Positions 2,763 through 51,076 of a stretch of 64,000 nt of DNA are shown piece after piece. The notes under the pieces were generated by a model. That model searched no databases. It saw nothing but the letters and a program-made list of their open reading frames with translations, and was not told the DNA's origin. Each line of letters starts with the position of its first letter. Positions within the stretch are counted from its first letter, which is position 1. The position numbers and the translations under genes are program-made. Source of the DNA: Betaproteobacteria bacterium (GTDB taxonomy: Bacteria; Pseudomonadota; Gammaproteobacteria; Burkholderiales; JACQAP01); assembly GCA_016194905.1 (NCBI GenBank), contig JACQAP010000026.1, positions 28,418 to 92,417 on the forward strand, read 5' to 3'.

Positions 2763-2767
2763 CGGGG

Positions 2768-31569: not shown

Positions 31570-31668
31570 TGCGAAGCGCCCGAATTATACAGGACGCCTG
31601 TCGCATTCCCGATTGCCGCGCAGCGATGCGTCTGCAACAATGCACCCTATCGACGATTTCACTCCAAT

Positions 31669-32151: not shown

Positions 32152-32154
32152 CCG

Positions 32155-32949
32155 CTAGCGGGCGATCAGCAACTCCGCGATCCAGCCTGCCTCGACCCAG
32201 CCGCGCAGCATGCCGGCGGCTCGCGCCGCGGCTTCCTCTTCGGCCACCCATTCGCACAACCCGGCGCAGATTTCGCCAAAGCCTGCTTGCGAAATCATGG
32301 CCTTCAGCGCCCAGGCTTCATCGGCTTCCAGCGACCGGAAGAACGGCGAGTGCTGCGTGCGCCAGACGGCCCAGGTTACCGGCTCATCAAAGGTTTCGGG
32401 CTCGAATGAACTGTCGTCGTTGTCGATTGCCTTCCAGATCGTGACCGCGTTGGTGCGCAACTCCAGCAAGCGTAAGGCCAGGTGGGGTTTGAAGCGAAGT
32501 TCCGCCCAGGCTTCCGGTGCCACGGCCGCAACCTCTTCAAAGCGCACTGCGTCTTCGTCCGGCGAATCGAACGCCTGTCCCAGCGACCACTCGAATTGGG
32601 CGAGCTCGGCCAGCACCGGATGTGCGGCGTAGCGCGGCGTGGAGCGCAGGAATTCCGCCAGCTTGCCGCCGAACCAGCGCACATTGCGAAACGTCGAGGG
32701 ATGCGCGGCGATGTAGTCGCCGGCGAGGGCGTCGAAAAGCTCGTCGCCCAGGTAAGCGTGCAGGACTTCGTAGTCGGTGCCGAGAACCTCGATCAGCCGC
32801 AGGCGATAGGCATTGCGGTAGATTCCCAGCCGCGTGTTGCGGAATTCCGCGGTGTCGCCTTCGATCTGGCTGTCGATGGCGCACCCGCCGGTCAGCACGT
32901 TGTCCTGGAAACGGGCTTCGGTGACGGCGAGCTGCTTCGGGCGAATCAT
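32155..32949 (-). CDS. DUF2063 protein (BufC-like partner of the MNIO enzyme), locus A
   Basis: 264 aa from ATG 32949, which overlaps the DUF692 stop (ATGA). ...[16 protein letters not shown]...[11 protein letters not shown]... matches the DUF2063 pattern. Confidence 0.85.
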
Positions 32950-33788
32950 GCAGCTGCTTTCGCTTGCAGGGTGTGCGCGGCAATCTCGCGCGCTCGGCCG
33001 AGCTCGGTCACCAGATCGGCCAGCGGCGGAATGTGGTCGTCGCGTTCGATCATGGTGGCGACGTTGCCGAAGCGGCGAACGGCGGTTGCGTACAGATCCC
33101 ACACAGGATCGACGATATCGGCATCGTGGGTATCGATGATGTGCGTGCCGCAGTGGCTGTGGCCGGCAAGGTGGATCTGCCGGACGCGCTCGACCGGGAT
33201 GCCGTTCAGGAACTCAAGGGCATCGAAACCGTGGTTGAACGCGCTGACGTAGATGTTGTTCACGTCCAGCAGCACGTGGCAGTCGGCGCGTCGTGCGATC
33301 TCGGATAGAAAATTCCATTCGCTCATCTCGGACCCGCGGAACGTCACGTAACTCGAAACGTTCTCGAGCAGGATCTGCCGGCCGAGGAAATCCTGCGCTT
33401 CGCGCACCCTGGCGGCGACATGCTCGACCGCTTCCTCGGTGTAAGGAATCGGGAACAGGTCGTGCAGATTCTTGCCGGCGACGCCGGTCCAGCAAAGATG
33501 ATCGGACACCCATGCCGGTTCCACGCGTTGCGCCAGCTGCTTCAGCGCCTTCAGGTAATCGCGGTCAAGGGGGTCGGTACTGCCGATCGAAAGCGACACC
33601 CCATGCAGCACCATCGGGTAGTCGGCGCGTATGCGATCGAGGAAATACAGGGGCTTGCCGCCAGGAACGAGGAAGTTCTCGCTGAGCGCTTCGAACCAGT
33701 CGACGCGCGGGCGGCTCTCGAGAATCGACTCGTAATGGTCGGTGCGCAGGCCCAGCCCGAATCCCAGTTCCGAATTCGTTGTCATCAA
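32946..33788 (-). CDS. DUF692 / UPF0276 multinuclear non-heme iron oxidase (MNIO; BufB/MbnB family), locus A
   Basis: 280 aa with [60 protein letters not shown] and IHLAGH, the hallmark DUF692 TIM-barrel motifs. Confidence 0.9.
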
Positions 33789-33809
33789 GAAACCATAGCC
33801 TTCACTTCA

Positions 33810-33842
33810 GTGCGGGAGTCCGGCGAACCGGACTTCCCGCAC
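33810..33842 (-). promoter_or_regulatory. Strong intercistronic stem-loop between the precursor gene and the MNIO gene (possible attenuator or mRNA-stabilising hairpin)
   Basis: gtgcgggagtccgg-cgaa-ccggacttcccgcac forms a 14-bp GC-rich stem with one bulge. The loop reads UUCG on the transcript strand. No U-tract follows. Confidence 0.55.
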
Positions 33843-33849
33843 TAAAGCA

Positions 33850-34104
33850 TTACGAGCGACCGGTAGCCTTTTTGCATTCATCCGGCGTGAGTGACACGAA
33901 GCCCTGGCCTTTGCAGGCGTTCTGGCCTTTGCAGGAACTGTTCGCGCTCTTGCACTCGCTCTGCCCCTTGCAGGAGTTGCCGCCATTGCAGGCGACCTTC
34001 GCCTCGGTCCCGCCGCCGCCGCTGCCCATGTTCGCACAACCCGTAATGAAAAGTGCAGCAGCGGAGGCCGCTACCGCCAAGCCTAAGATTTTCCTGCCTT
34101 CCAT
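33850..34104 (-). CDS. 6-Cys CKG-repeat RiPP precursor (bufferin BufA2-like), predicted lipoprotein
   Basis: 84 aa: MEGRKILGLAVAASAAALFITG|CANMGSGGGGTEAKVACNGGNSCKGQSECKSANSSCKGQNACKGQGFVSLTPDECKKATGRS. It has a lipobox (ITGC) and 6 core Cys spaced 5-5-6-5-12. It lies directly upstream of DUF692. Confidence 0.8.
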   Translation of the reverse strand: MEGRKILGLAVAASAAALFITGCANMGSGGGGTEAKVACNGGNSCKGQSECKSANSSCKGQNACKGQGFVSLTPDECKKATGRS

Positions 34105-34218
34105 GGTTCATTCCCCTTCCAATGTGATTGACGATCTGCCTGGTTACGGCCGTCGGTGCCTGCCGCAAGTGGAAGTACGCAACAACCGCACAATTGGATG
34201 TGGGCGAGGCCGAATTCC

Positions 34219-34410
34219 TTATTTATCCTCGCGGTCCTTGATCACCGGATGATTGCGAAAAGCCGTGCGCAGGAAGGAAATCTGTTGCTGGAAGTTCCTG
34301 CAGCCCTCGCAGGCTTTCAGGTGCACCGCCATCCGCCAACGCTCCAGCCAGCCGAGACGGCGATCCATGGAATGGGAAACCAGCTCGGAAACTTGCTTGC
34401 AGGTCAGCAT
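34219..34410 (-). CDS. Small zf-HC2 (ZAS-type) anti-sigma factor without a TM segment
   Basis: 63 aa. MLTCKQVSELVSHSMD... is the anti-sigma N-helix. HLKACEGC matches the H-x3-C-x2-C ZAS motif. It lies 43 nt downstream of the ECF sigma gene. Confidence 0.75.
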   Translation of the reverse strand: MLTCKQVSELVSHSMDRRLGWLERWRMAVHLKACEGCRNFQQQISFLRTAFRNHPVIKDREDK

Positions 34411-34453
34411 CGAGGTTGACGCGGGGCACGCACCGACGGAAAACGAAACGAGT

Positions 34454-35047
34454 TCATTTGACCGGACGGACCCGCTCTTCCGGGCCGAACCAGGCCACCT
34501 CGAGGCATTCCCGCAGACTCATCCGCGCACGGTAAAGAATCACCCAGCAATTGGTCGACGATATCCCCAGTTCCTGACAGATATCGCCCGTGTCCATGCC
34601 CATGAATTCGCGCATTGCAAATACGCGCGCCGTCTGCGCCGGCAACTGGGTGTTGCAGCGTTCGAACACTTCCCAGAAGCGCTTCTGCTCGAAACAGCGC
34701 TCGGGATCTTCCCACGTCGGCGGAAAGGTGTGCCAGTGGTCGGTGCGGGCCTGGTCGAAGAACTGGTCGGCGAACTCGCGTTCGTCTTCGCCGTCGGGCG
34801 CATCCGGTACCTGCGTCTCCCGCGACTGCTTGCGGAACAGATCGGTGATCTTGTGCTTCAGGATGCCGGTCAACCAGGTTTTGACCGAGGAGCGTCCGGC
34901 GTAACGATCGCCGCCTTCGATGGCGGCGAGCAGCGTTTCCTGCACGATATCCTCGGCGCGGTTGGCGTCCCGCACCTGCAGCAGGGCATAGCGGTAGAGA
35001 TAGGCGCGGTGTTCCTGGAGTTCACCGGGCCCGGTGCGTTCGGCCAT
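34454..35047 (-). CDS. ECF-type sigma-70 family RNA polymerase sigma factor
   Basis: 197 aa from ATG 35047; the track start at 35104 is a TTG. Region 2 reads YLYRYALLQVRDANRAEDIVQETLL. Region 4 reads RVFAMREFMGMDTGDICQELGISSTNCWVILYRARMSL. Confidence 0.85.
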   Translation of the reverse strand: MAERTGPGELQEHRAYLYRYALLQVRDANRAEDIVQETLLAAIEGGDRYAGRSSVKTWLTGILKHKITDLFRKQSRETQVPDAPDGEDEREFADQFFDQARTDHWHTFPPTWEDPERCFEQKRFWEVFERCNTQLPAQTARVFAMREFMGMDTGDICQELGISSTNCWVILYRARMSLRECLEVAWFGPEERVRPVK

Positions 35048-35136
35048 CTGAGATCCACTGGACTGGGAGGTCTTGAATCTAGTGATTTTGTCCCAAGAAC
35101 TCAAGTCTGGCGACCGACAGAGGCGTAAATGACGCT

Positions 35137-37073: not shown

Positions 37074-38228
37074 TTACGGGGTCCCGGCGGCCGTCGGAAA
37101 ACCGACGCGGCGCTCGCGCCCCAGCCATTGCCTCTCCATCTCCACCGATGCGCGTACCGCAAACAGCTTGAGAATGGCATGGTGCGGCAGCACCGGCTGC
37201 ATTTCGACGCGACTCTTGCAGGCGATGTGGCCAATGACCCTGCCTTTGGTATCCAGGCAGGGCAGGCCTAGATATCCCTCGGTGCCGTAGCGGCGTTCCT
37301 CCGGCCAGCGAGCGGTTGCGTGACGGGGCACGAATACGCTTCGCCCGCTCTGGATGACTTCCTGGCAGGGCGTGTTCGCCAGATCGAATTCCTCGCAGGC
37401 GGCGAATTTTCCCTCAATCCAGAAGGCGAGCATGCGCAACCTGTTCGTGGGGTAGTTGCTGCACTCGGTCAGAAAGGCTTCTTTCACGCCGATGAGATCG
37501 GCGAGTTTTCCGACCAGCGCCTGATAACACGCCTGCCCGGAAAGGTCGGCCAGCCCGTCGGCAACCTCCAGCAACACCTGCTGTACCTGGTGGCGCGACG
37601 CAATATCCGTGGTCAGGCCCAGCATGCGGTAAGGCGTGCCATTGGCATGGCGCACGGCCTGGGCGCGCACCAATACCCAGCGATACCGGCCGTCGCGATG
37701 GCGCAGACGGTGCTCGTTCTCGAAACGAACGCTGTGGCCCTGCAGATGCGCATCAACACCAGCCAGGGCGCGCTCGCGGTCCTCGGGATGAATGCGCGAA
37801 TGCCACTCGTCAATCCCGCCGCCTATCTCACATCCTTCATTGCCGAGCATGCTTTTCCATCGCGGCGAATAAAATACCGCGCCGGTTTTCAGGTTCCATT
37901 CCCACATGCCGTCGTTCCCGCCGCTTACGGCGAGGGCATAACGTTCCTCGGTTTCGCGCAGGTTCTCATTCAGCCGCCGGCGGCGGCTGACTTCTTCGGC
38001 GACACGGTCCTGCAAGCGGCCCGCCGCTGCATGCAGATCGTCCAGTCCACCGCGAATGGTCGCCAAAGCGTCGCCGCGCAACAGCGGAACGAGCCCGGCC
38101 GCCGCAACATAGTGGCTTGACTGGGCCGCCAATCGCCCGAGCCGCAATCGCAATATCAGATTAAACGCCAGCGTCAGCGACAATACGCTGACGCTGGCAA
38201 TGGCCGCTGTCACCCAGGCGAAACTCAT
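37074..38228 (-). CDS. Membrane-anchored PAS + GAF-like sensor protein without a recognisable output domain (paralogue 2)
   Basis: 384 aa from ATG 38228, which overlaps the histidine-kinase stop (ATGA). It is colinear with paralogue 1: ERYALAVSGGNDGMWEWNLKTG.VFYSPRWKSMLG, RHRDGRYRW, GYLGLPCLDTKGRVIGHIAC. Confidence 0.75.
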   Translation of the reverse strand: MSFAWVTAAIASVSVLSLTLAFNLILRLRLGRLAAQSSHYVAAAGLVPLLRGDALATIRGGLDDLHAAAGRLQDRVAEEVSRRRRLNENLRETEERYALAVSGGNDGMWEWNLKTGAVFYSPRWKSMLGNEGCEIGGGIDEWHSRIHPEDRERALAGVDAHLQGHSVRFENEHRLRHRDGRYRWVLVRAQAVRHANGTPYRMLGLTTDIASRHQVQQVLLEVADGLADLSGQACYQALVGKLADLIGVKEAFLTECSNYPTNRLRMLAFWIEGKFAACEEFDLANTPCQEVIQSGRSVFVPRHATARWPEERRYGTEGYLGLPCLDTKGRVIGHIACKSRVEMQPVLPHHAILKLFAVRASVEMERQWLGRERRVGFPTAAGTP

Positions 38229-39724
38229 GCCGCGCACTCGAGCGAACCGGACTGCGCCACGGGCAGCGTGAAGCGGAACTCGGTGCCGACTCCCGGGCGG
38301 CTGGCAACATCGATGCGGCTCTCATGCAGTTCGAGAATGCTCCTGGAGATGGCCAGACCCAGACCGGCATGCTCGCCGCGCGCGCGCTGATCGTCGTTGA
38401 CACGGTAAAAGCGATCGAAGATGTGCGGAATTTCCTCTTCAGGGATGCCGCAGCCCGAATCCGCGACTGCGACGACGGCGTGTTGGACATTCGATTTCAG
38501 ATCCAGGCTTACGCTGCCGCCGGCACTGGTATGCGCAATCGCGTTTCCGATCAGGTTTTCCAGCACACGTTCGATCAGGCCGATATCGGCGCACACGAAC
38601 GGCGGATTCCTCGGCAAGTTGACCGCCAGCTTTATTTGCTTCTGGTCCGCCCGGAGCTGGAATTTTTGCATGACATCCTGCATCAGTTCCGCGACGGGGA
38701 ATGCTTCGCGTGACAACTTGACCTCGCGCGCATCGAGCTTGGCAAGTTCGATCAGGTCGCCGATGAGCTTGGCGAGACGCTCGCCGCTGCGCGAAGCGAC
38801 AAGCAGATAGTGACGACGCTCCTCGTCGCTCAGGCTGCCGTCCTTGAGCAACAAGGTGTCCACATATCCCTGCAGCGACGCCAACGGCGTTTTCAGATCA
38901 TGGGATACGTTGGCGACCAGCTCGCGGCGCAGCACATCGTTGTGCGTGAGTTCGCGCACCTGGTCGACCATGCGGATCGACATCTCGCGAAAGGTGCCGG
39001 CCAGCCGGTCGATCTCGTCGGAGTTTTGCCCGGCGGCGGGTAGTTCGGCAACCGGCGCGGTTGAAAATTCGCCGCGCTGGAAATTCGCCATGACCTCGGC
39101 CAGGTGTTCCAGCCGGCGGGTCATGAATGCGAATATCAACATGCCGGTGAGCACGGCAAACAGGACGCCGACCGCGACTTCGCCCACCGTTACCCGCAGG
39201 ATGTAGCTACCGGCCAGGAGGCTGCCGATGCTGTCCTGTTCTTCGTTCGCAAGGATGACGTAGAGAAATCCACGACCGTCGTTTGGCCCCGGTATCGCCG
39301 CTGCCGAGAAAATCTTCCAGGTGCCGGGGTTGCGTGGATCGTTGCCCAGAATCGGCAGTCGGGCGTTGCCGGAGAGGAACCGACGGATGGGATCGAGTGC
39401 GACCTGCGCGAGCTTTACCTTGCCCGGTGCCGCCGAGTATTCGACCACGCGTCCTTCATTGTCCAGCAAATAGATCTCGATCGATGGATTGATCGCCATC
39501 TGCATGTCGAACAGGGATTTCAGGCGCGCCGAGTCGTAGCCTTCTGGCGTGATGAGCCGGTTCTGTTCGAGCAGATGATGCGCCAGTTTCTGGTTCAGCT
39601 TCTGGGTCGCCTCCTGGTTGTAGGCGACGAAGAAATGCAGAGTCGCCAGCACGAGCGCCGTGCCGACTGCGAGAAAAAGCAGCAGCAGGACGCCGGCAAG
39701 CTTGCTGTAAAGAGTGCGGAACAT
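38225..39724 (-). CDS. Sensor histidine kinase (periplasmic sensor domain, HAMP, HisKA, HATPase_c)
   Basis: 499 aa with two TM segments flanking a loop of about 150 aa. The H-box is VSHDLKTPLASLQGY, the N-box is LENLIGNAI, and the G-boxes are DSGCGI and GLGLAI. Confidence 0.9.
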   Translation of the reverse strand: MFRTLYSKLAGVLLLLFLAVGTALVLATLHFFVAYNQEATQKLNQKLAHHLLEQNRLITPEGYDSARLKSLFDMQMAINPSIEIYLLDNEGRVVEYSAAPGKVKLAQVALDPIRRFLSGNARLPILGNDPRNPGTWKIFSAAAIPGPNDGRGFLYVILANEEQDSIGSLLAGSYILRVTVGEVAVGVLFAVLTGMLIFAFMTRRLEHLAEVMANFQRGEFSTAPVAELPAAGQNSDEIDRLAGTFREMSIRMVDQVRELTHNDVLRRELVANVSHDLKTPLASLQGYVDTLLLKDGSLSDEERRHYLLVASRSGERLAKLIGDLIELAKLDAREVKLSREAFPVAELMQDVMQKFQLRADQKQIKLAVNLPRNPPFVCADIGLIERVLENLIGNAIAHTSAGGSVSLDLKSNVQHAVVAVADSGCGIPEEEIPHIFDRFYRVNDDQRARGEHAGLGLAISRSILELHESRIDVASRPGVGTEFRFTLPVAQSGSLECAA

Positions 39725-39749: not shown

Positions 39750-40454
39750 TCACTGACGTTCAGCGAACTTGTAGCCCACTCCCCATACCGTCTGGATATA
39801 TTCGGGGTTCTGCGGGTCGCGTTCGATCTTGGCGCGCAAGCGGTTGATGTGCGAATTCACCGTGTGTTCATACCCACTGTGCTGGTATCCCCACACCTGG
39901 TCGAGCAATTGGTCGCGGGTGTACACCCGCCCCGGATGGCGGGCGAAATGCACGAGCAGGTCGAATTCGCGCGCAGTCAGCGTCACCGGTTTGCCGTCGA
40001 GCGCGACGCAGTGGCGCTCGAGATCCAGCGAGAGCGCTCCGGCACGGACCATGTTGCCCGCCTCTGCGATTCCGGCATTGGGGACTGCGCGCATGCGCCG
40101 CAGGATCGCTTTGACCCGTGCGGTGAGTTCGAGCACCGAAAACGGCTTGGTCAGGTAATCGTCGGCGCCCATTTCCAGACCCAGCACGCGGTCCAGTTCT
40201 GAAGATTTCGACGTCAGCATCAGGATCGGGGTGTAGGTACCCCGCCCACGCAACCGCCTGCAAACCTCCAGGCCGTCCAGGCCCGGCAGCTTGAGATCGA
40301 GGATGATCAGGTCGTAGTCCTTCGCTTCCGCTTCGGCCAGGCCGACGATGCCGTCGGCGGCGAGCTTTACCTGGCAGGGAAGGTCCTGCAAATGCAGCCT
40401 GACCAACTGGGAAATGTCTTGATCGTCTTCGATCACCAGTACGCTGTGCGTCAT
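39750..40454 (-). CDS. OmpR/PhoB-family response regulator (REC + winged-helix)
   Basis: 234 aa from ATG 40454. The REC domain shows VLVIEDD...DLIILDLKLPGLDG...PILMLTSK. The winged helix shows LTAREFDLLVHFARHPGRVYTRDQLLD.VWG...RTV..HI.RLR.KIE. Confidence 0.9.
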   Translation of the reverse strand: MTHSVLVIEDDQDISQLVRLHLQDLPCQVKLAADGIVGLAEAEAKDYDLIILDLKLPGLDGLEVCRRLRGRGTYTPILMLTSKSSELDRVLGLEMGADDYLTKPFSVLELTARVKAILRRMRAVPNAGIAEAGNMVRAGALSLDLERHCVALDGKPVTLTAREFDLLVHFARHPGRVYTRDQLLDQVWGYQHSGYEHTVNSHINRLRAKIERDPQNPEYIQTVWGVGYKFAERQ

Positions 40455-40539
40455 GTCCCCCGCGCTTTCATTGTATTGGTCCGGTTCGCCGTTTTGCCGG
40501 CTTTGCCTGATTGGTAGAAGCAAGCCCGGATTCCTTACA

Positions 40540-42747
40540 TTACATCGCCGCCGTTTCCAGCCGCGGCCGAGCGGGTGAGGTCGGGGCGGCCGCGATCAGC
40601 GGCGCGCCGGTGATCAGGCGCGTGCCGCTACGCAGGGTCAGATAGGCCCAGAACCAGTCGAACATCACCGACATCCGGTTGCGCACGCCTACCAGGAAGC
40701 CGACGTGCACCATGCCCCAGAGCCACCAGGCCCCGGCTCCGGACAAACGTACCGAACCGAAGTCGGCTACCGCCGCTTTGCGGCCGATGGTGGCCAGGCT
40801 GCCGAGATGGCGATAGCGGAAAGGTCGTGGCGGCGTTCGCCCGGCAATTCGCGAGCGGATTACCGATGCAACATACAAGCCGCCCTGCTTGGCGGCCGGC
40901 GCCAATCCAGGCACGGGTTGGCCATTCCACGCGGTCGAGTACGCCGTGTCACCGATGGCGAAGACTTCCGGCAGTCCGGTCACCGACAGGTCCGCGCCGA
41001 CCTTGATCCGGCCGGCGTTGTCGGCTTCCGTGCCCAGCCATGTTGCCGCGGGCGAGGCGACCACACCTGCCGCCCACAATACGGTGCGTGCGGCGACACG
41101 CTTGCTGTTCACAGTCACACCCAGCTCGTCTATGGTTTCCACCCGGCTGCCGGTCTGGACCTCAACGCCCAGATTCTCCAGCGAGCGTTTTGCATTCTCG
41201 GAAAGAGCTTGCGGAAATGTGGGCAGTATTCGCGGCGCCGCCTGCACCAGCACTACGCGCGCCGCCGCCGGGTCAAAGCGACGAAAGTCCTTGTCCATGC
41301 CGAAGCGCGCGAGTTCCGAAATTGCTCCGGCCAGTTCAACGCCGGTCGGTCCGCCGCCGACGATGAGAAACGTCAGCAAGGCACGGCGTTCCGATTCGTC
41401 TTCGCAGGCCTCCGCGCGCTCGAACGCGGTGAGCACACGCCTGCGTATGTCGGTTGCGTCTTCGATGCGCTTGAGCCCGGGCGCATGCGCCGCCCAGTCA
41501 TCACGGCCGAAATAACTATGCGAGGCACCGGTGCCCAGCACCAGGAAGTCGTAAGCAATCTGCAGATCACCGACCATGACCTTGCGCGCCGCGGTATCCA
41601 CGGCAGTCACCGTTCCGAGCAGCACCCGGGCGTTGAACTGCTCGCGGAACAATCCGCGCACTGGCGAGGCGATATCACCCGGCGCCAGACTTGCCGTGGC
41701 CACCTGGTACAACAGCGGCTGGAACAGGTGATAGTTGTTGCGGTCGATGAGCGTGACTTGCACCCTTGCCTGGCGCAGCGCCTGCGCGCACGCGAGCCCG
41801 CCGAAACCAGCGCCGACGATGACCACGCGCGGCAAGCCTTCGATGGAGAAGGCAGGCTTGCCGGCGAGTTGCGGGAACACGCCGCGCAGGCGCCTGTGGA
41901 GAAGGGCGTCCAGCGAAAGCGGCCCTGCGCCGAAAGCGAGGAACAGGCCGAGCGCCATTGCCCAACGCCAGTCCGGCCCAAGGCTCGGGTCCATCACGGT
42001 CAGTGCGATGGCCGCCGCAGCCAGCGCGATGGCGGTGAAACGGGTCGCGAAGCCGGTTGCCAGCAGCAATGCACAGGCAACTGCAATGCCTCTCGGCAGT
42101 TGCGGCGCGCTGGCAATCGGCAGCCAGTCCGCAACGGCAATGCCGGCGGCGGGCGATGCGTGGGCGGCAACGACAAGCGCCATGGCCAGCCAGGCTCGCA
42201 GCACCAGCTGATAGACGGGAAAGATGCGCCGCGTGATCCAGTCGAAAATCCGCACGATTCCCGCAGCGAACGGAATCGCGGTGTCGCCCGTCCCGCGCTT
42301 GAGCAGATGATCGAACGACAGCGGCCCGGCGCCGCGCAGCATGATCCACGCCAGCGATGCGGCCCACAACAATTGCGTGTCGAGCGCGCGGTAGCTGAAC
42401 TGGATCACGAGCGCCAGGGCCAGCATCGGAGCCGCCGCCAGGCGAGTCGCGAGTCCCGCCGCCAGCAACACCGAGCCCGCGAGTTCGACGACGACGCCGA
42501 AGACCGCAGCGGCTACGGGATCCAGCCATGAAACCGGATATTCGTTGGCCGACAGGTAGAGCGCAGTTTCCCAGCCGGTGATTTTCAGCAGGCCCGAAAC
42601 GAAGAATGCTTCCGCCACCCACAGCCGGATCGCGAGATCGAGCAGCGGACCGAACGAACGCTCGAGCGCGCGGAACGCGTCCGCGAATGCGGACATGAGA
42701 TTGCCGATCTGCGTGGAATGGACGCTTGCCGCTGCGCGTTTCATCAT
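40540..42747 (-). CDS. Fusion protein: two DoxX-like membrane domains + type II NADH:quinone oxidoreductase (NDH-2)
   Basis: About 735 aa; the start is ATG 42747 or 42744, behind AGGAG. Residues about 30-150 (LLDLAIRLWVAEAFFVSGLLKITGWETALYLSANEYP...GAGPLSFDHLLKR) are clearly paralogous to the stand-alone DoxX at 51953..52432. A second DoxX-like repeat follows (...GAGPLSLDALLHRRL). After that comes the NDH-2 part: RVVIVGAGFGGL..., FLIVGGGPTGVELAG, FAIGD. Confidence 0.85.
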   Translation of the reverse strand: MMKRAAASVHSTQIGNLMSAFADAFRALERSFGPLLDLAIRLWVAEAFFVSGLLKITGWETALYLSANEYPVSWLDPVAAAVFGVVVELAGSVLLAAGLATRLAAAPMLALALVIQFSYRALDTQLLWAASLAWIMLRGAGPLSFDHLLKRGTGDTAIPFAAGIVRIFDWITRRIFPVYQLVLRAWLAMALVVAAHASPAAGIAVADWLPIASAPQLPRGIAVACALLLATGFATRFTAIALAAAAIALTVMDPSLGPDWRWAMALGLFLAFGAGPLSLDALLHRRLRGVFPQLAGKPAFSIEGLPRVVIVGAGFGGLACAQALRQARVQVTLIDRNNYHLFQPLLYQVATASLAPGDIASPVRGLFREQFNARVLLGTVTAVDTAARKVMVGDLQIAYDFLVLGTGASHSYFGRDDWAAHAPGLKRIEDATDIRRRVLTAFERAEACEDESERRALLTFLIVGGGPTGVELAGAISELARFGMDKDFRRFDPAAARVVLVQAAPRILPTFPQALSENAKRSLENLGVEVQTGSRVETIDELGVTVNSKRVAARTVLWAAGVVASPAATWLGTEADNAGRIKVGADLSVTGLPEVFAIGDTAYSTAWNGQPVPGLAPAAKQGGLYVASVIRSRIAGRTPPRPFRYRHLGSLATIGRKAAVADFGSVRLSGAGAWWLWGMVHVGFLVGVRNRMSVMFDWFWAYLTLRSGTRLITGAPLIAAAPTSPARPRLETAAM

Positions 42748-42775
42748 GACTCCTGGATCTGCCGGCATGCCGCGT

Positions 42776-43579
42776 TCATGCGGCTGCAGGCGACTGGTGC
42801 GCGCGATAGCGGCACGGGAATATGCACCTGCTGTCGTTTTCGTGGTGCAGTTTGCAGCACAGCACGGCGCTCCTGCCGCGGGTCATCAGATAGAGTTCCG
42901 CCGCGATCAGCATGCCGGCCACCGGCGCCAGGAAGTAGATCCACGCATCGGTCCAGACCCGTGCCGGCAGGGCGGACGCGAAGGTGCGCGCCGGGTTCAT
43001 GCTCATTCCGGACAGCGGTGCCTCGAAGACGATGAACAATGCAACCAGCACTCCGGCGAACAGGCCGGTGTAGCGATTCAGCGCCGGCCTGTTCGATACC
43101 GTCAGCACCGTGAACATGAGGCCGCCGGAAATGAGTGCCTCGGCGAGAAAAGCCGGCCAGCGGCCGGCCATTCCCGGCACGGTGACGGCGTAGTTCACGG
43201 CCGCGTCGGCAATGACCGCGGTGCCGAACAGGAATGAAAACAGCACGACGCCGGCGGTGCCGCCGGCAAACTGGAACAGTGTGTAGAACATCGCGTCGCG
43301 CGTGTGGATTCTTCCCAGCCGCCAGAACGTCGCCGTGACGGCCGGATTCAGGTGCGCGCCGGAACGCTTGCCCAGCGGTGAATAGATCAGGCCGATCGCC
43401 GTCAGCCCCATGGCCAGCGCGATCAGCGCGCGCCGCGTGAACGGGTCCGGTACCGCCTGCCTGGCGAACGAGGCGGGATGCTCCAGCAAGGCGGTGAAGG
43501 CGCAGGCCGACAGCATGAACAGCCCGAGACCGAGCGCTTCGAGGAAATATTCCGGCCAGTGGTAGTCCCCGGACTTCAC
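42776..43579 (-). CDS. MIP-family channel (aquaporin/aquaglyceroporin-like)
   Basis: 267 aa from GTG 43579, which overlaps the upstream stop (GTGA). It has two NPA boxes (HLNPAVT and MNPARTF) and six hydrophobic segments. Confidence 0.85.
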   Translation of the reverse strand: MKSGDYHWPEYFLEALGLGLFMLSACAFTALLEHPASFARQAVPDPFTRRALIALAMGLTAIGLIYSPLGKRSGAHLNPAVTATFWRLGRIHTRDAMFYTLFQFAGGTAGVVLFSFLFGTAVIADAAVNYAVTVPGMAGRWPAFLAEALISGGLMFTVLTVSNRPALNRYTGLFAGVLVALFIVFEAPLSGMSMNPARTFASALPARVWTDAWIYFLAPVAGMLIAAELYLMTRGRSAVLCCKLHHENDSRCIFPCRYRAHQSPAAA

Positions 43580-46299
43580 GCGACCGCCTTCTTCCTCGTC
43601 GCCCGGGCTGCGGGCTGCTGTGCCTGCTGCTGACGCCAGTAGCTCGGGATGTCGGCGCGGTAGCGGCGCTGCACCAGGTTGGCGACCAGTCCGGTCCACC
43701 CGGTCTGATGCATCGCGCCCAGGCCGAGACCGTTTTCGCCGTGGAAATATTCGTTGAACAGCAACAGGTCTTTCCAGGCCGGGTCGGTCTGAAACGGACT
43801 GTTCCCGGGCAATGCGGGAATGCGTCCGTCGGGTCCGCGGCGAAAGATGTTCACCAGCCGGTCCGAGAGCAGCTTGGAGATCTCGTTGAGGTTCATTTCC
43901 CGGTCGCCCAGGCAGGGCGCGCGCACCTTGAAGCCGTCGCCGAGAAAGCGGTAGTAGCGCTCGATGGCCTGCACCAGCACGTAATTGGTCGGCATCCAGA
44001 TCGGCCCGCGCCAGTTGGAATTGCCGCCGAACAGGCCGGAGTTGGATTCGCCCGGCACGTACTCGATGAGCGCGCGGCCGACGCCCTGGATGACGCCAAG
44101 GTCGCGGCGTTCAGCGTGCACGCGCGACACGGCGCGCACGCCATAGTTCGACAGGAACTCGTTCTCGGACAGCAGGTGCTTGAGGATGGCCCGCAGTTTT
44201 TCGGCGTCGACCAATGCCAGCAGGTGTTCGCCGCGGGCATTGGTCTTGGTCGGGCACTCGGAAACGTAGTGGCCGTCGAACAGCCCGTAGCGATGCGCCT
44301 TCATCACCGCTTCGAAGCGCGGTGCCGCCTTGAGCAGACGCTGATCGACGATTTCGCAGGCGAACAACGGAATCAGACCGACCCAGGAAAACACGTCGAT
44401 GCGCTGCGCACTGCCGTCCGGCCCCACCACTACGTCCTTGAAGAAGCCGTCCTGTTCGTCCCACAGTGATATGCCCATGCCGCTGCCGCCGGCGATGGTG
44501 TTGGCGATGCCGAGGAACTGCAGATAACACTGGATGGCAAGATCTTCGTAGTCTGAATCGGAGGCCGCCAGTTCCAGGCACAGCATGGTCATGTTCAATG
44601 CGAACATCGCCATCCAGCCGGTCGCGTCGGCTTGTTTGAGGCTGAACCCGGCGGGCAGCGGCTGTGAACGGTCGTACACCGAAATGTTGTCCAGTCCGAG
44701 GAAACCACCTTCGAACACGTTGTTGCCGTCGGCGTCCTTGCGATTGAGCCACCAGGTGTAGTTCATCAGGAACTTGTGGGTCACGCGTTGCAGGAAGCCG
44801 ATGTCGCCTTCGCCGCGCTGCACCCTCTCGGCGCGAAAAGCTTTCAGCGCGGCCATCGCCAGCACCGGCGGATTGACGTCGTCGAAGGACCACTCGTACG
44901 CCGGAATCTGGCCGTTGGGGTGCAGGAAGTGTTCGGTGAGCAGCAGTTCGATCTGCTGCTTGGCGAAATCCACGTCGACCAGCGCCAATGCGCCGCAATG
45001 AAAAGCCAGGTCCCAGGCGGCGAACCACGGGTATTCCCATTTGTCCGGCATGGACACGACATGCGCGGCCTTCATGTGGCGCCAGCGGCGATTGCGTCCG
45101 ACCTTGCGGTTCGCGGGCGGCGGCAATTGATCTCCATCCTGCCAGCGCGCGACATCGAAGTGGAAGAACTGCTTGCTCCAGATCATGCCCGCCAGCGACT
45201 GGCGCAGTATGTTCATGTCCTGGGTGTCGCCCTCGGGCAGCAGCTGGTCATAGAACACCGTGGCTTCCGCCTCGCGTTTCGCGAAGGTGACTTCGCGCTT
45301 GCCGAAAGGATCGACGAGCGGCTGGCGCGACAATGTCATGCCGATGGTCGCCGAGTGACCGGGCTCGAGCGTAACGACATGCCAGGCGCCGAACTTGGTG
45401 CCGGACAGTTCCGGGTTGACCGCGGCTTGCTCGGCATTGACGACGCGACGGTGGAATGCGTCTTTCACGTAAGGCGTTGTGCCGGAAACATTCCAAAGGC
45501 GCTCGGCATTGCTCTCGTTTTCCGTGTAAAGCACCTGCGCGGGGTGCCGGCCATAAAGATGGTAAGTGCCCAGCGTGGGGTGGTCGGCTTGCACCGCCCA
45601 CCGGGCGCCCATGGGCACCGCGATATCCCGTAGCACGGGTTTGTCCACCGGATCGCCCCAGGACCAGTCGTTGCGAAACCATAACTGCGGCAGCAGGTGC
45701 AGCGGTGCGGCCTCCGGTCCGTGATTGGTGGCGATGATCCGGATGTGAATCTCGTCCGGTCCGGCCTTCGCATAACGGACTTCGACATCGAAGTAACGGC
45801 TGTCTTCGAACACGCCGGTGTCCAGCAGATTGAACGGCGGTTCCTGTCTGGAGCGACGCGCGTTTTCCCGCACCAGCCATCCGTACGGATACTCCGCCTG
45901 CGGATATTTGTAGAGATAGCGCATCCAGCTGTGGCTGGGCGTGGCGTCGAGGTAGAAGTAGAACTCCTTGACGTCCTCGCCGTGATTGCCCTGGTTTCCG
46001 GTCAGGCCGAACATGCGCTCCTTGAGGATGGGATCCTTGCCGTTCCATATGGCGAGCGCGAAGCACAGGCGCTGATGCTCGTCGCAAATGCCCCCGAGGC
46101 CATCCTCGTTCCAGCGATAGGCGCGACTTCTCGACTGATCGTGATCGAAATACTCCCAGGCGGTGCCGCCTGCACTGTAATCCTCGCGCACCGTGCCCCA
46201 GGCGCGTTCGGCAAGGTAAGGCCCCCATAGCCGCCAGTCCTCGCGGCCTTCGTGTTGCGCCTCCAGTCGTTGCCGTTCCGCGTTCAGCGTTGCGTTCAT
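43576..46299 (-). CDS. Large (alpha/alpha)6-barrel glycoside hydrolase, GH63/MGH1-like ('glucosidase' family)
   Basis: 907 aa. The N-terminus WRLWGPYLAERAWGTVREDYS..GTAWEYF.HD.SRSRAYRWNEDGLGGICD matches proteins I recall as annotated MGH1-like/GH63-like glucosidases. The substrate is unknown. Confidence 0.6.
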   Translation of the reverse strand: MNATLNAERQRLEAQHEGREDWRLWGPYLAERAWGTVREDYSAGGTAWEYFDHDQSRSRAYRWNEDGLGGICDEHQRLCFALAIWNGKDPILKERMFGLTGNQGNHGEDVKEFYFYLDATPSHSWMRYLYKYPQAEYPYGWLVRENARRSRQEPPFNLLDTGVFEDSRYFDVEVRYAKAGPDEIHIRIIATNHGPEAAPLHLLPQLWFRNDWSWGDPVDKPVLRDIAVPMGARWAVQADHPTLGTYHLYGRHPAQVLYTENESNAERLWNVSGTTPYVKDAFHRRVVNAEQAAVNPELSGTKFGAWHVVTLEPGHSATIGMTLSRQPLVDPFGKREVTFAKREAEATVFYDQLLPEGDTQDMNILRQSLAGMIWSKQFFHFDVARWQDGDQLPPPANRKVGRNRRWRHMKAAHVVSMPDKWEYPWFAAWDLAFHCGALALVDVDFAKQQIELLLTEHFLHPNGQIPAYEWSFDDVNPPVLAMAALKAFRAERVQRGEGDIGFLQRVTHKFLMNYTWWLNRKDADGNNVFEGGFLGLDNISVYDRSQPLPAGFSLKQADATGWMAMFALNMTMLCLELAASDSDYEDLAIQCYLQFLGIANTIAGGSGMGISLWDEQDGFFKDVVVGPDGSAQRIDVFSWVGLIPLFACEIVDQRLLKAAPRFEAVMKAHRYGLFDGHYVSECPTKTNARGEHLLALVDAEKLRAILKHLLSENEFLSNYGVRAVSRVHAERRDLGVIQGVGRALIEYVPGESNSGLFGGNSNWRGPIWMPTNYVLVQAIERYYRFLGDGFKVRAPCLGDREMNLNEISKLLSDRLVNIFRRGPDGRIPALPGNSPFQTDPAWKDLLLFNEYFHGENGLGLGAMHQTGWTGLVANLVQRRYRADIPSYWRQQQAQQPAARATRKKAVA

Positions 46300-46326: not shown

Positions 46327-46489
46327 GCCACAAAGGACACCCACCTCTCCCCATCCCTCTCCCCCCGCAAGCGGGCGGAGAGGGTGTCGGATACAGAGGA
46401 AGTCACGCTCGCATCACTGCCTTTGGCTCCCTCTCCACGTAAGCGGAGAGGGCGGGGGGTGAGGTGCCTTTCTCTGTGTCCTCTGTGGC
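46327..46489. repeat. REP/MITE-like imperfect palindromic element (about 163 bp) with two CCCTCTCC...GGAGAGGG hairpins
   Basis: The termini are GCCACAAAGGACAC (46327-46340) and its near-perfect inverse gtgtcctctgtggc (46476-46489). Internal hairpins lie at 46355-46384 and 46429-46452. The stop codon of the debranching-enzyme ORF (46403-46405) lies inside the element. Confidence 0.6.
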
Positions 46490-48508
46490 AGATTGTTTCT
46501 TCGCTTTTTCCAGGAGCCACCAGGCTTCCAGCGTGCAAGCCACCGACCAGGCCTGCGAGGGTGCGCCGCCCGGTGCGTGCGGCGGGCCGCCGTCGAAGAT
46601 TTCGCTGACCGTGCCCAGGCCGGCATCCAGCAAGTGATCGCGTAACGGATCGAGTCGCGCTTGCGCGCTTTGCGCATCGCCGAACACGCGGAATTCGGCC
46701 AACGCGTAGTGGCCGAGCAACCAGCCCCAGGCCGGTCCCTGGTGATACGACGAATCGCGCTCGCGGACGCCGCCGCGGTAATACGGTTTGTAGTCGGCAT
46801 GCGAAGGAGTCAGGGAGCGCAGGCCGTAAGAGGTGAGCAGCTCAGCGCCGCACTGGCGAACCACCCTTTCCTGAATCACTCGATCGAGCGGAGAAAAGGG
46901 CAGGCTCACGGCAAAGATCTGGTTCGGCCGCACGCTTGGGTCGTCCCCGTTCGGCCCGTCGAGCACGTCATAGAGGCCGCCGGCATCCTCATTCACGAAG
47001 CGCTGGAAGGCCTGTCTGACCTGCAAAGCGAGCGTGCGGTAGGGCTCGCGGGAAAGTTTCAGCAGGTCGGCAAATTGCACCATGGATTCGAGGGCGTTGA
47101 ACCAAAGCGCATTGATCTCCACTGGTTTGCCCGCGCGCGGCGTGACCACCCAGTCGCCGATCCTGGCGTCCATCCATGTCAATTGCACGCCGGGCGCGCC
47201 GGCGCGCAGCAGTCCGTCGGACGCATCCACGCCGATGCCGTAGCGGGTTCCCCTGATGTGCCATTCGATGACCGATTCGAGCACCGGGAAGGCATCTTTG
47301 AGCGCGGCCTTGTCATGCGTGGTATCCACGTAGGCACGCCAGGCCTCGATGTACCAGAGCGCCGCGTCCACGGTGTTGTAATCCGGTTTGTCTCCGGCAC
47401 CTGGAAAGACATTCGGCAACATGCCCTGGTCGACGAAGCGCGCAAAAGTTTGCAGGATCCGGCGCGCAGTTTCGAAGCGTCCGCTGGCTAGCGTCAGGCC
47501 CGGCAGCGCGATCATCGTGTCGCGACCCCAATCGCCGAACCAGGGATAACCGGCGATCACCGATTCTCCGTCGGGCGCTTCCGGAAGCGGGCGCGCAAAA
47601 ATAAAGCTCGCGGTCGCAAGCGTGAGCTGATCGACCCATGCCGGCGCTTGCGCAAGCTCGGGTACCTGCACGCGCGCCCGTTTGAGATTGCCGGCGTCCG
47701 CCGCTCTGGCGCGGCGCAACGCTTCATCGAGATACGGCGAAGGATTGGCATCCAGGCTGGCTACCACGCCCACCCATTCGCCGGGGAGCAGCTGCAGGGC
47801 GGCCTCGCCGACGCAAAGATGATTGTCGCGGTCGGCCAGGCCGCGGCTGCGCTCCGCCGGCAGATCGAAGTTTTCATACCATTCGTGCCGGCCGTGAATG
47901 ATGCCGCCACGGGCGCGCAGCGTGAGCGCGAACCAGTCCGGGAAGCGCACCCGGAGGTCGGCACCGCCGGATTCGATCACGGGATTGAATTCCCCGGAGC
48001 GCGCGCTGCCGTGATGGTCGTGCGCGTTGGCGAGCAGCTTGATGTTCAATGACAGCGGCCGTTGCGGTTCACCGCCGTCGGGCAGCAGGCGGAAAGCGAC
48101 ATAGGTGGTGTTGGCGCCTTGTTCCATCCAGATGCGCTGCTCGACACGCAGACCAGCGCAGGCAAAACGCCATACCGGAATGCGGCCGTCGAGTTCGAAG
48201 GATTCGATATTCAGATGTCCCGCGGGCGCAATCACGCCGCCCCCCCAGCGGTTGCTGAACAGCGGCCAGCTATCGACGCCGTCGCTCAGCGTCGCGTCGG
48301 CTTTGGCTACGACAAGACGGCGACCCAGCGGCGGATCGACCGGCGCGACCAGCAAGCCATGGTAGCGGCGCGTAAGCGTGCCGGCGATCGTGCCCGCCGC
48401 GTAGGCGCCGAGTCCATTGGCGAGCCACCATTCGCGGCGCTCGGCCTGTTCGATGTCGCCGCAGATTTCCCTGCCGAAGCGAATCAGTGGTGCCTGCGGG
48501 GAATTCAT
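46403..48508 (-). CDS. Glycogen debranching enzyme-like protein (bacterial GDE N-terminal domain + amylo-alpha-1,6-glucosidase C-domain)
   Basis: 701 aa from ATG 48508, with GAGGAG upstream. The N-terminus REWWLANGLGAYAAGTIAGTLTRRYHGLLVAP and the C-domain ...GYPWFGDWGRDTMIALPGL... fit the family. The last about 30 codons are encoded by the REP-like element. Confidence 0.8.
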   Translation of the reverse strand: MNSPQAPLIRFGREICGDIEQAERREWWLANGLGAYAAGTIAGTLTRRYHGLLVAPVDPPLGRRLVVAKADATLSDGVDSWPLFSNRWGGGVIAPAGHLNIESFELDGRIPVWRFACAGLRVEQRIWMEQGANTTYVAFRLLPDGGEPQRPLSLNIKLLANAHDHHGSARSGEFNPVIESGGADLRVRFPDWFALTLRARGGIIHGRHEWYENFDLPAERSRGLADRDNHLCVGEAALQLLPGEWVGVVASLDANPSPYLDEALRRARAADAGNLKRARVQVPELAQAPAWVDQLTLATASFIFARPLPEAPDGESVIAGYPWFGDWGRDTMIALPGLTLASGRFETARRILQTFARFVDQGMLPNVFPGAGDKPDYNTVDAALWYIEAWRAYVDTTHDKAALKDAFPVLESVIEWHIRGTRYGIGVDASDGLLRAGAPGVQLTWMDARIGDWVVTPRAGKPVEINALWFNALESMVQFADLLKLSREPYRTLALQVRQAFQRFVNEDAGGLYDVLDGPNGDDPSVRPNQIFAVSLPFSPLDRVIQERVVRQCGAELLTSYGLRSLTPSHADYKPYYRGGVRERDSSYHQGPAWGWLLGHYALAEFRVFGDAQSAQARLDPLRDHLLDAGLGTVSEIFDGGPPHAPGGAPSQAWSVACTLEAWWLLEKAKKQSATEDTEKGTSPPALSAYVEREPKAVMRA

Positions 48509-48534
48509 GATGTCGTCTCCTCTGAAGTTCCGCA

Positions 48535-50025
48535 TCAGGCGACGGATTCCGCCGCGTGCATCTCGTCGCGCGTGATGGCACGCGTTTCGCCAAGTCGCTG
48601 CGCCGCGCGCAAAGCCCAGGCGTAGATGGTGAGTGCCGGATTGACCCGGCTCGAGCGCGGCAGGATGCTGCCGTCGACCACATAGAGATTCGCCATGCCG
48701 TGAACCTTGCCGACGGCGTCTACCACCGAGGTTTGCGGACTGTGGCCGGCGATGAGTGTTCCGCAAGCGTGCGCCGTGCCGCTTAGCGGTATCGCCTTGG
48801 TGAGCGGGAAATAGCCGAGCCTAATGAGCTGCCGTTGCAGCGCGCGCACGAAGCGCCGGTGTTCGTCACGCGCGGAAGGCAGACGTTCGACATCGTAGTC
48901 GAGCCGCGGACTCACGCCGGGCTGCACCACGACGCGGTTATCGGGATGCGAACCGTCCTCGGTTTGCAAGAACAATCCGTAGACACGATTGCCGACGATG
49001 TCGCTCAGGCGTTTCGGTATGAAGCCGGGCATCTGTGCGGAGATGATATCGGCGGCGAGGCCGCCGCCCAGTGTCTGCAGGCTGCTGTGCGGAAAACGAT
49101 CCGAAATCAGCAGTGCTGTTTTGCACAGCACGTCGTGCACTTTGCGGTGCGATAGCGCCAGCATCGCGGTGAGCATGTGCGATTTGTAATTGCGCCCCAC
49201 CTGCCGGTAAGCCGGCAGACTGTGCGAGAGTCCGGCGGATTCCATGTAGGTCTGCAGAAGGCGGGGGCTGTGCAATGCGCCAGCGGCCAGCAGTACGGCG
49301 CTGGCCTCGAAGCGGCTGCCGTCATCGCAAACCACGCCGCTGATGCGAGTCGGTTCGCCGGCACCGGGGAGCAGGCTTGTCACCTGTCTGCCGATCAGAA
49401 TCTGCAGGTTGGACCGATCGCGCACGCGGTCCAGGAAACGGTTCTCGGCATCGGCTTTCAATCCGCGAACCGACGCATAGGCGTCGAAATGGGCTGCTTC
49501 GTAAGGATGGTTCAGGATGTCGGCGGACAGTCCCAGCGGGAGCGGCCGCATGCGCCAATGGGGGTCTTGCCTGTGCAGGCCGTCCGCCAGCTTGCGCATG
49601 TCCGCCTCCACCGGAAACTGGCGCACCCCGAGCAGGTTTTCCGCTTCCTCGTAGAACGGTTCAAGATCGTCATAGCCGATCGGCCAGCCGCGGCATTGGT
49701 GACTTGCGTCGACTTCGAATTCTTCGGGGGCAAAGCGCAGCAGCGCGGCTCCATACCATTTGGTCTTGCCGCCAAGGTTGAAGTGTTCTTCGGGTACGAC
49801 GGTGCGGCCGAATCTATCCAGCCAGGGTTCGCGCGCCAGAAATTTTCCGTGACGAATCACCTGGTACGCATCGAGCGTGCTGCCGTCCTTCGGCAGCGAC
49901 GGTCCGCGCTCGATCAGCAGCACGCGTTTGCCGGTCTGTGTCAGATGGTAAGCGGCGGCCGAACCGCCGGCGCCTGAACCGATGATGATCGCGTCGTATC
50001 TCATGGCTGGACCCGTGGCCCTCAT
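48535..50025 (-). CDS. GMC-family FAD-dependent oxidoreductase
   Basis: YDAIIIGSGAGGSAAAY is the FAD-binding motif. The GMC C-terminus reads ...GTAHACGT...VVDGSILP. Start ATG 50025 overlaps the upstream stop (ATGA); ATG 50004 is an alternative. Confidence 0.8.
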   Translation of the reverse strand: MRATGPAMRYDAIIIGSGAGGSAAAYHLTQTGKRVLLIERGPSLPKDGSTLDAYQVIRHGKFLAREPWLDRFGRTVVPEEHFNLGGKTKWYGAALLRFAPEEFEVDASHQCRGWPIGYDDLEPFYEEAENLLGVRQFPVEADMRKLADGLHRQDPHWRMRPLPLGLSADILNHPYEAAHFDAYASVRGLKADAENRFLDRVRDRSNLQILIGRQVTSLLPGAGEPTRISGVVCDDGSRFEASAVLLAAGALHSPRLLQTYMESAGLSHSLPAYRQVGRNYKSHMLTAMLALSHRKVHDVLCKTALLISDRFPHSSLQTLGGGLAADIISAQMPGFIPKRLSDIVGNRVYGLFLQTEDGSHPDNRVVVQPGVSPRLDYDVERLPSARDEHRRFVRALQRQLIRLGYFPLTKAIPLSGTAHACGTLIAGHSPQTSVVDAVGKVHGMANLYVVDGSILPRSSRVNPALTIYAWALRAAQRLGETRAITRDEMHAAESVA

Positions 50026-51074: not shown

Positions 51075-51076
51075 GA

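Follow-up and report, generated by a model that had tools for sequence, protein, structure and literature searches.

A widespread protein architecture joining two DoxX domains to a type II NADH:quinone oxidoreductase, encoded near sugar and bufferin genes

A survey of MNIO clusters names as their core genes those for a precursor, the MNIO, a DUF2063 protein and a DoxX protein, giving no function to the last, and the DoxX passages that a term search retrieves from it do not mention type II NADH:quinone oxidoreductase (NDH-2) (PMC12452194). In Caulobacter, the DoxX protein of the buf1 operon, BufD1, is called a putative oxidoreductase (PMC11626156). A DoxX domain within a larger protein was described in a passing remark of 2017, which noted that Legionella pneumophila lpg0671 ('ndh', NADH dehydrogenase transmembrane protein), lying between two bufferin-like clusters, has a DoxX domain in common with the DoxX of the GIG operon, yet is a much larger NADH dehydrogenase membrane protein (PMC5413113). 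Here we describe a gene that fuses two DoxX domains to a complete NDH-2, found in a 64,000-nucleotide stretch of a Betaproteobacteria bacterium genome (contig JACQAP010000026.1 of assembly GCA_016194905.1, positions 28,418 to 92,417; hereafter the window), and we establish the reality of the gene, the identity of its domains, the homology of its repeats, its pattern of conservation, its predicted topology and its gene neighbourhood.

The Legionella gene is flanked by the H2 operon on one side and on the other by the H4 genes for the precursor, MNIO and DUF2063, in the company of genes for an acetoacetate decarboxylase and an adenylate cyclase (PMC5413113); in the same description, lpg0671 acts as the DoxX member of a cluster that has no standalone DoxX. 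An in-frame deletion reported at residue 453 indicates that its product is long (PMC3661481). The likeness of lpg0671 to the protein studied here rests on the published description, and the two-repeat architecture was read from the fusion genes rather than from lpg0671 itself. DoxX has been found to resemble the DoxD subunit of thiosulfate:quinone oxidoreductase (PMC5413113), and MexG, itself a DoxX protein, uses its DoxX domain to bind the quinolone PQS (PMC5477026). The NDH-2 of E. coli can reduce Cu(II), a reaction ascribed to quinol (PMC7558416). E. coli RclC, the partner of the Cu(II) reductase RclA, was considered as a DoxX-like precedent and rejected at an hhalign probability of 2.8%. 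Our search of the literature on DoxX together with NDH-2 or NADH dehydrogenase returned no study of the fusion beyond the remark on lpg0671, and neither a conserved cluster around the fusion nor a systematic linkage to bufferin operons was found described in the literature searched. Both domains are known, and the architecture that joins them is widespread, automatically annotated and remarked on once.

The gene in the window consists of the following parts (aa, amino acids; ORF, open reading frame):
40540..42768, minus strand: DoxX-DoxX-NDH-2 fusion gene, a single ORF of 742 codons (742 aa)
42289..42663, minus strand: DoxX repeat 1 (residues 36-160), BufD/HvfX type, four membrane helices
41884..42243, minus strand: DoxX repeat 2 (residues 176-295), a degenerate copy
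41830..41883, minus strand: 18-residue linker (FPQLxGKPAFSLEGLP), conserved to the same degree as the enzyme core
40819..41829, minus strand: NDH-2 flavoenzyme core (residues 314-650), with FAD and NAD(P)H GxGxxG motifs, Q509 and APAAKQ
40609..40818, minus strand: NDH2_C, the NDH-2's own C-terminal membrane anchor (residues 651-720), from Pfam and conservation

Inspection of the start showed an AGGAG-like site preceding Met-8, which likely marks the true start (position 42747, giving 735 aa) and is located 26 bp past the stop of the upstream MIP channel gene. The ORF of about 735 aa ending at 42747 that an initial annotation had reported, working from the sequence alone, matches this Met-8 start of the 742-aa frame.

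An exact look-up of the protein matched no record, and its relatives are numerous. DoxX, Pyr_redox_2 and NDH2_C occur together in all 120 of the best homologues (62-91% identity, 92-99% coverage); these are 708-794 aa long, save two longer ones with an added MIP domain, and many are labelled 'NADH dehydrogenase / YphA (DoxX/SURF4 family)' at JGI. A profile search of a 50%-identity library yielded 141 clusters at E < 1e-30, and a scan of one genome per species identified relatives of the double-DoxX module in 207 species genomes. We kept 80 of the scan's loci, which come from Beta-, Gamma- and Alphaproteobacteria and mostly from metagenome-assembled genomes, and added three from look-ups, for a total of 83 (L001-L083); the isolates represented include Inquilinus ginsengisoli, I. 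limosus and Desertibaculum subflavum. At 78 of the 83 loci the DoxX module continues directly into the NDH-2 part, while among the other five, four are cut by a contig end and one (L028) is frameshifted. Two in-frame MIP-DoxX-DoxX-NDH-2 triple fusions were also found (P0053, 1027 aa; P0030, 955 aa), whose topology is consistent, with 6 + 8 helices and a cytoplasmic enzyme.

These observations bear on whether the ORF could be an assembly or frameshift artefact joining two genes, as the initial annotation had allowed for. One degraded copy, L028, is all that would favour such an origin; the same continuous architecture occurs in every one of the best homologues, from independent sources, as well as in the 78 loci, and few segments of the protein are better conserved than the junction. 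An artefact is therefore refuted, its probability being practically nil, and the DoxX + Pyr_redox_2 architecture is genuine and conserved. L028 itself (1670..3945) had been a candidate for a standalone double-DoxX gene and was rejected as a frameshifted, partly deleted fusion copy, its DoxX and NDH-2 parts being in different frames with an internal segment lost; either the gene has decayed to a pseudogene or its assembly is poor. It is followed by an ORF resembling glucose-1-phosphate adenylyltransferase (glycogen synthesis), named from reading its translation alone.

The Pfam DoxX profile (PF07681) matches residues 44-125 of the fusion with 43.1 bits against a cut-off of 23.6, such that the N-terminal domain, which the initial annotation had put forward for a DoxX profile search, passes it for repeat 1. 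The N-terminal 155 aa are 38% identical to the standalone DoxX encoded at 51953..52432 in the window (pairwise E 3e-25), and the sequence blocks from which a paralogy between the two had been proposed are found in this alignment. Repeat 2 receives no score from Pfam and is weakly similar in pairwise comparisons (E 3e-5 and 2e-6); its homology to repeat 1, suggested earlier as a diverged second DoxX-like repeat, was confirmed by profile-profile comparison using profiles from 121 homologues, with a probability of 99.5% and an E of 1.8e-22 over 121 columns.

We find that repeat 1 is specifically of the bufferin-operon type, since a profile of 29 MNIO-linked standalone DoxX proteins gives it 123 bits, compared with 41 bits for the generic E. 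coli DoxX protein YphA, and since in the reverse test the operon DoxX of the window reaches 100 bits and YphA 21. Moreover, repeat 1 and the MNIO-linked DoxX proteins match in profile-profile comparison with a probability of 100% (E 2e-40). The equivalog cut-off of the NCBIfam HvfX model (NF050144, 80 bits) is reached neither by the fusion (27.8 bits) nor by the window's standalone DoxX (51.8 bits) nor by ten standalone relatives (42-66 bits), which indicates that this cut-off leaves out the whole lineage. A match of the fusion to DoxD was weak, at 17.8 bits under the Pfam cut-off of 22.7. DoxDA thiosulfate:quinone oxidoreductase belongs, as a membrane protein working with quinone, to the same wider group; the fusion differs from it in having neither a DoxA partner nor a sulfur-oxidation context, in addition to this sub-threshold match.

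Across 71 family members (down to 53% identity), residues R48, S58, K62, E76, Y77 and P78 of repeat 1 are invariant, as are E95, R109, Y126 and D153, and these positions are also conserved in the 29 standalone DoxX proteins encoded beside bufferin genes. With nearly all of its conserved positions found in such proteins, repeat 1 is of a common type with BufD1, HvfX and GigT, from which the fusion differs in that the DoxX domain is duplicated and joined to an enzyme. Repeat 2 retains G239, R243 and G280/G282/D287. The combination of a well conserved repeat 1 with a degenerate partner suggests that the pair forms a built-in pseudo-dimer.

The remainder of the protein is a complete NDH-2, as the initial annotation had read from two GxGxxG folds. 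Both motifs are present (GAGFGG at 319-324, GGGPTG at 471-476), Pyr_redox_2 matches residues 314-630 with 171 bits (cut-off 26.1) and NDH2_C residues 654-713 with 44.7 bits (cut-off 27.7), and residues 311-722 align end to end with the solved NDH-2 chain 9mqy_A (E 1.8e-101). Both dinucleotide folds and the C-terminal anchor domain are thus common to the two proteins, whereas the fusion adds a 310-residue N-terminal double-DoxX module and the conserved linker. The mean frequency of the majority residue is 0.75 in repeat 1, 0.51 in repeat 2, 0.85 in the linker, 0.83 in the NDH-2 core and 0.87 in the C-terminal anchor.

At the quinone site, the NDH-2 motif AQxAxQ (AQGAIQ in 9mqy) reads APAAKQ in the fusion, the last Gln being invariant and the first replaced by Pro in 120 of 121 homologues (APxAxQ). 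At the end of the second nucleotide-fold strand, 9mqy has an Asp and the fusion a Gln (Q509), shared by 119/121 homologues. An uncharged residue at the NDH-2 nucleotide site has been linked to NADPH use, although it is not strictly predictive (PMC11670749). Since a near-invariant Gln here occupies the place where an acidic residue is linked to NADH specificity, we read the substrate as NAD(P)H rather than NADH alone: the enzyme may use NADPH too, and its predicted activity is that of an NAD(P)H:quinone oxidoreductase. The earlier proposal of an electron supply hard-wired to NADH is in this respect too strong, the specificity for NADH being uncertain. Cys327, considered as a possible essential residue, is invariant in close homologues but is Ala in 12 of the 71 broader family members, and is therefore not essential.

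An AlphaFold model of the N-terminal 285 residues displays eight long helices (pLDDT 87.9, pTM 0.86). Hydropathy and charge fit an N-in, eight-helix topology with a cytoplasmic NDH-2, following the positive-inside pattern, with 4, 5 and 4 Lys+Arg residues in the cytoplasmic segments and none in the two long periplasmic loops. The protein is most likely an inner-membrane flavoenzyme in which an eight-helix double-DoxX module is connected by the 18-residue linker to a cytoplasmic NDH-2 with its own C-terminal anchor. The invariant residues of the DoxX module are located on both membrane faces and within the membrane. Taken together, the retention of the enzyme's own anchor, the conserved linker and the invariant intramembrane charges suggest that the DoxX module shares in the work of the enzyme and does more than tether it.

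We also compared the double-DoxX model with solved structures. The best matches were GGCX and NACHO/TMEM35A: the membrane domain of GGCX, the vitamin K-dependent gamma-carboxylase, was matched with a probability of 0.84-0.89 and a TM-score of 0.40-0.45 over about 300 columns, and NACHO with a probability of 0.93 and an rmsd of 3.5 over 124 columns. GGCX works with a quinol, vitamin K hydroquinone, in the membrane. These resemblances of a predicted model offer a lead, and a relationship is not demonstrated by them.

With respect to genomic context, we found that the fusion closes, as its last structural gene, a conserved SDR-VOC-GMC-GDE-GH63-MIP cluster, to which it is more tightly linked than to bufferin genes. 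This cluster had been overlooked in the initial annotation, which related the fusion to the bufferin loci. The features surrounding the fusion in the window are these:
42776..43699, minus strand: MIP-family channel with a Cys/His-rich C-terminal tail; probable start 43579, overlapping the GH63 stop
43576..46299, minus strand: GH63 / MGH1-like glycoside hydrolase
46403..48766, minus strand: amylo-alpha-1,6-glucosidase (GDE_N + GDE_C); true start probably later in the ORF
48535..50025, minus strand: GMC flavoprotein dehydrogenase
50022..51173, minus strand: tandem VOC/glyoxalase-fold protein with a hydrophobic N-terminus
51077..51916, minus strand: SDR resembling glucose 1-dehydrogenase (NF005559, 234 bits against a cut-off of 215)
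51953..52432, minus strand: standalone BufD-type DoxX of bufferin locus B, its stop 36 bp before the SDR start
52501..52791, minus strand: BufA1/DUF2282 precursor of bufferin locus B
52906..53913, minus strand: DUF2063 protein of bufferin locus B
53723..54592, minus strand: MNIO of bufferin locus B
39750..40523, minus strand: OmpR-type response regulator, directly downstream of the fusion
38225..39724, minus strand: sensor kinase, after the response regulator
32155..35104, minus strand: locus A, a second MNIO cluster, without a DoxX gene (ECF sigma factor 34454..35104, MNIO 32946..33788, DUF2063 32155..33102)

On the minus strand, the order accordingly runs MNIO-DUF2063-BufA1-DoxX, SDR-VOC-GMC-GDE-GH63, MIP, fusion, regulator, kinase and PAS-GAF, two PAS-GAF proteins being encoded beyond the sensor kinase. 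The fusion is 9.2 kb downstream of the bufferin operon on the same strand, with six tightly spaced genes between them; there is a 4-bp overlap between the VOC and GMC genes, and probably likewise between GH63 and MIP. A scan for promoters and terminators between 37.0 and 56.9 kb found no more sites than in shuffled sequence, and one good terminator only (55057..55042), upstream of the MNIO gene.

To determine which of these genes recur beside the fusion, we searched the 83 loci with the window's proteins; the counts that follow refer to the 52 loci with at least 9 kb upstream, and to a distance of 10 kb for bufferin genes. In 87% (45/52) of these loci at least one gene of the SDR/VOC/GMC/GDE/GH63/MIP set was present, and in 37/52 three or more. 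Bufferin-operon genes occurred in 48% (25/52), with a separate DoxX in 24 loci, BufA1 in 13, DUF2063 in 14 and MNIO in 11, and this is a lower bound, as in the commonest layout the bufferin operon starts right at the 10-kb flank limit. After de-replication at 70% identity, bufferin genes were retained in 16 of 28 clusters and at least three sugar/MIP-set genes in 19 of 28. Given that the maximum published number of MNIO genes in one genome is 7 (PMC12452194), we estimate that chance would account for such proximity to bufferin genes in a few percent of loci at most. The fusions thus co-occur with MNIO loci, as the initial annotation had anticipated.

Several layouts recur. The order SDR-VOC-GMC-GDE-GH63-MIP-fusion occurs in 11 loci and GDE-GH63-SDR-MIP-GMC-VOC-fusion in 6, while in a further arrangement of 6 loci the whole set is inverted and lies downstream of the fusion on the opposite strand. 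BufD is followed by the SDR gene within about 120 bp in 18 loci, and MIP by the fusion in 21. In L061, bufA, MNIO, DUF2063, doxX and the fusion follow one another closely as five genes in a row, and the sugar set is absent; L080 has the same order with an AhpC/TSA redoxin inserted, and in L004 and L005 an acetoacetate decarboxylase and a patatin-like protein are inserted. In L061, L080 and L051 the fusion stands directly by bufferin genes with no sugar genes nearby. Furthermore, L061 and L076 (contig CAWHRH010000003.1) are two fusion paralogues in one metagenome-assembled genome, the L061 copy being within a bufferin operon and the L076 copy beside the sugar/MIP set, which suggests that the sugar and bufferin associations can be split between copies.

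Between the bufferin genes and the fusion, we repeatedly observed genes for an acetoacetate decarboxylase with a patatin-like phospholipase, an AhpC/TSA redoxin, a Cache-adenylate cyclase and a PAS-GGDEF-EAL protein (L004 1922-4863; L005 7650-9855; L079 4029-7825; L080 4096-4788; L069 6961-9513). The acetoacetate decarboxylase and adenylate cyclase that accompany the Legionella gene are the same accessory genes as in L004, L005 and L079. In both Legionella and the window, moreover, a fusion gene is located between two MNIO clusters, here loci A and B. By analogy, a fusion that could serve the DoxX-less locus A, as the initial annotation had ventured, fits the organisation of the Legionella H4 cluster. 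A PCuAC copper chaperone domain adjoins locus A on the opposite strand (region 30856..35104).

Some properties of the neighbouring genes are of interest in their own right. The MIP channel ends in a cytoplasmic Cys/His-rich tail (42776..42850, minus strand), LCCKLHHENDSRCIFPCRY, and about 45 of 47 MIP genes of related loci, judged by eye, have a tail of the form CCKLHHEN..RCIF.C.Y or CAKL.H....RCIHCG[YH], the former found in 21 by pattern; such a tail may sense metal or redox state. Among solved proteins, the GMC protein comes closest to the large subunits of bacterial FAD-glucose dehydrogenase and of fructose dehydrogenase. The related FAD-glucose dehydrogenase carries an Fe-S cluster in one of its subunits; for the GMC protein such a cluster was considered and is unlikely, as no Cys cluster was found on reading its sequence. 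The matches of the VOC protein are weak and generic. In locus B, the order MNIO-DUF2063-BufA1-DoxX places the precursor after the modifying enzymes and not first as in the described bufABCD, and inspection by eye of the 450 bp preceding the MNIO gene revealed no small BufA-like ORF. Upstream of locus B, beyond the good terminator, an SMP-30/gluconolactonase-like protein with a signal-peptide-like N-terminus is encoded (55094..56722, minus strand), and a similar gene is present in five related loci; judging by the glucose-1-dehydrogenase-like SDR, it could process a lactone product.

Combining the above, we propose, with a probability of roughly one half, that the fusion is a quinol-handling DoxX module fed by an NAD(P)H:quinone reductase, and that it supports the bufferin defence against copper and oxidants. 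In the corresponding mechanism, the sugar cluster would free and oxidise glucose and so supply NAD(P)H, which would reduce the FAD of the NDH-2 part; the FAD would then reduce quinone at the membrane surface, and the quinol would be passed to, or used by, the DoxX module for a reaction at the periplasmic loop carrying E76-Y77-P78 and the intramembrane Glu95. The fusion would in this way feed reducing power into the membrane for a BufD-type DoxX reaction at the periplasmic face under copper or oxidant stress. From this arrangement we infer that quinone is handed on, in which direction the electrons flow, what the physiological acceptor is and that the sugar genes act as a fuel line. The initial annotation had reasoned from the fusion, with a Rosetta-stone logic that is reasonable, that bufferin-type DoxX proteins work with a quinone-coupled electron supply; the fusion, the BufD type of its repeat 1 and its co-occurrence with bufferin genes are borne out by our data, and the handling of quinone by BufD-type DoxX proteins may follow by analogy.

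A number of results weigh against this proposal. In Caulobacter, deletion of BufD1 left both copper protection and peptide modifications unaffected (PMC11626156), and a DoxX function could by analogy be marginal or redundant. The same dispensability makes a role of the fusion in peptide maturation, which the initial annotation had suggested, unlikely. The DoxX repeats contain no conserved Cys, His or Met able to hold a redox cofactor, none of the structural matches to solved proteins is significant (all E > 0.1), and the full-length AlphaFold model is moderate (pLDDT 80.3, pTM 0.62), leaving the packing between domains uncertain. About half of the well-flanked loci have no bufferin gene within 10 kb, including most of those with the GDE-first layout, and in the window the fusion stands outside the bufferin operon proper, its co-transcription with that operon being no more than a possibility.

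The principal alternative is that the fusion is an ordinary respiratory NDH-2 with an extra membrane domain, which re-oxidises the NAD(P)H of the sugar cluster into the quinone pool, and that the link to bufferin reflects shared stress regulation or a shared island. Such a role, which we regard as possible though on the unlikely side, would agree with the fact that the strongest neighbourhood link is to the SDR/VOC/GMC/GDE/GH63/MIP genes (45/52 loci), with the GDE-first loci that lack bufferin genes within 10 kb, with the closeness of the enzyme to a solved respiratory NDH-2 and the keeping of its own anchor, and with the glucose-1-phosphate adenylyltransferase-like ORF (a reading of its translation) that adjoins one locus. 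However, a domain serving only as an anchor would need no invariant charged residues in common with the DoxX of bufferin operons, nor a linker as conserved as the enzyme core. Bufferin genes are, moreover, found within 10 kb far more often than the estimated few percent, and in L061, L080 and L051 the fusion directly adjoins bufferin genes while sugar genes are missing nearby.

Another comparison is with the Mhq system of Bacillus, which combines a reductase dependent on NAD(P)H with a DoxX membrane protein, a VOC-fold dioxygenase and an esterase. The fusion and its neighbours might analogously detoxify quinones or electrophiles, reducing and degrading toxic quinones or hydroquinones, perhaps ones freed from glycosides by the two hydrolases. 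The VOC protein does belong to the conserved set, L002 and L003 have an esterase gene between those for the VOC protein and the fusion, and AhpC/TSA redoxins are encoded between BufD and the fusion in L079 and L080. Nevertheless, the weak and generic VOC matches, the small number of loci with an esterase and the lack of recurring aromatic-catabolic genes all argue against this explanation, which also leaves the association with bufferin and copper unaccounted for, and we consider it quite improbable.

Returning to the proposed quinol-handling DoxX module, a more general and rather speculative version, to which we give distinctly less credence than to the proposal itself, would have BufD-type DoxX proteins be periplasm-facing, quinol-using enzymes of which the fusion is a self-powered form, with electrons passing across the membrane via quinone to the bufferin copper defence and drawn from a private line from glycogen to NAD(P)H. 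If this were true, the fusion would, for example, reduce Cu(II) to Cu(I), the form that bufferin 1 binds most tightly (~7e-20 M; PMC11626156), or would repair oxidised bufferin, and the fuel line made up of the sugar genes and the MIP channel would continue to run while central metabolism suffers from copper.

Bufferin clusters are a very widespread bacterial defence against copper, and DoxX belongs to their four core genes. The occurrence of the fusion beside and inside bufferin operons provides a testable hypothesis, namely that DoxX works on quinol, and tractable organisms in which to pursue it are at hand in Legionella pneumophila (lpg0671) and Inquilinus species. The conserved cluster, in which genes for sugar hydrolases and dehydrogenases accompany one for a MIP channel, may, in turn, explain how the system is fuelled.

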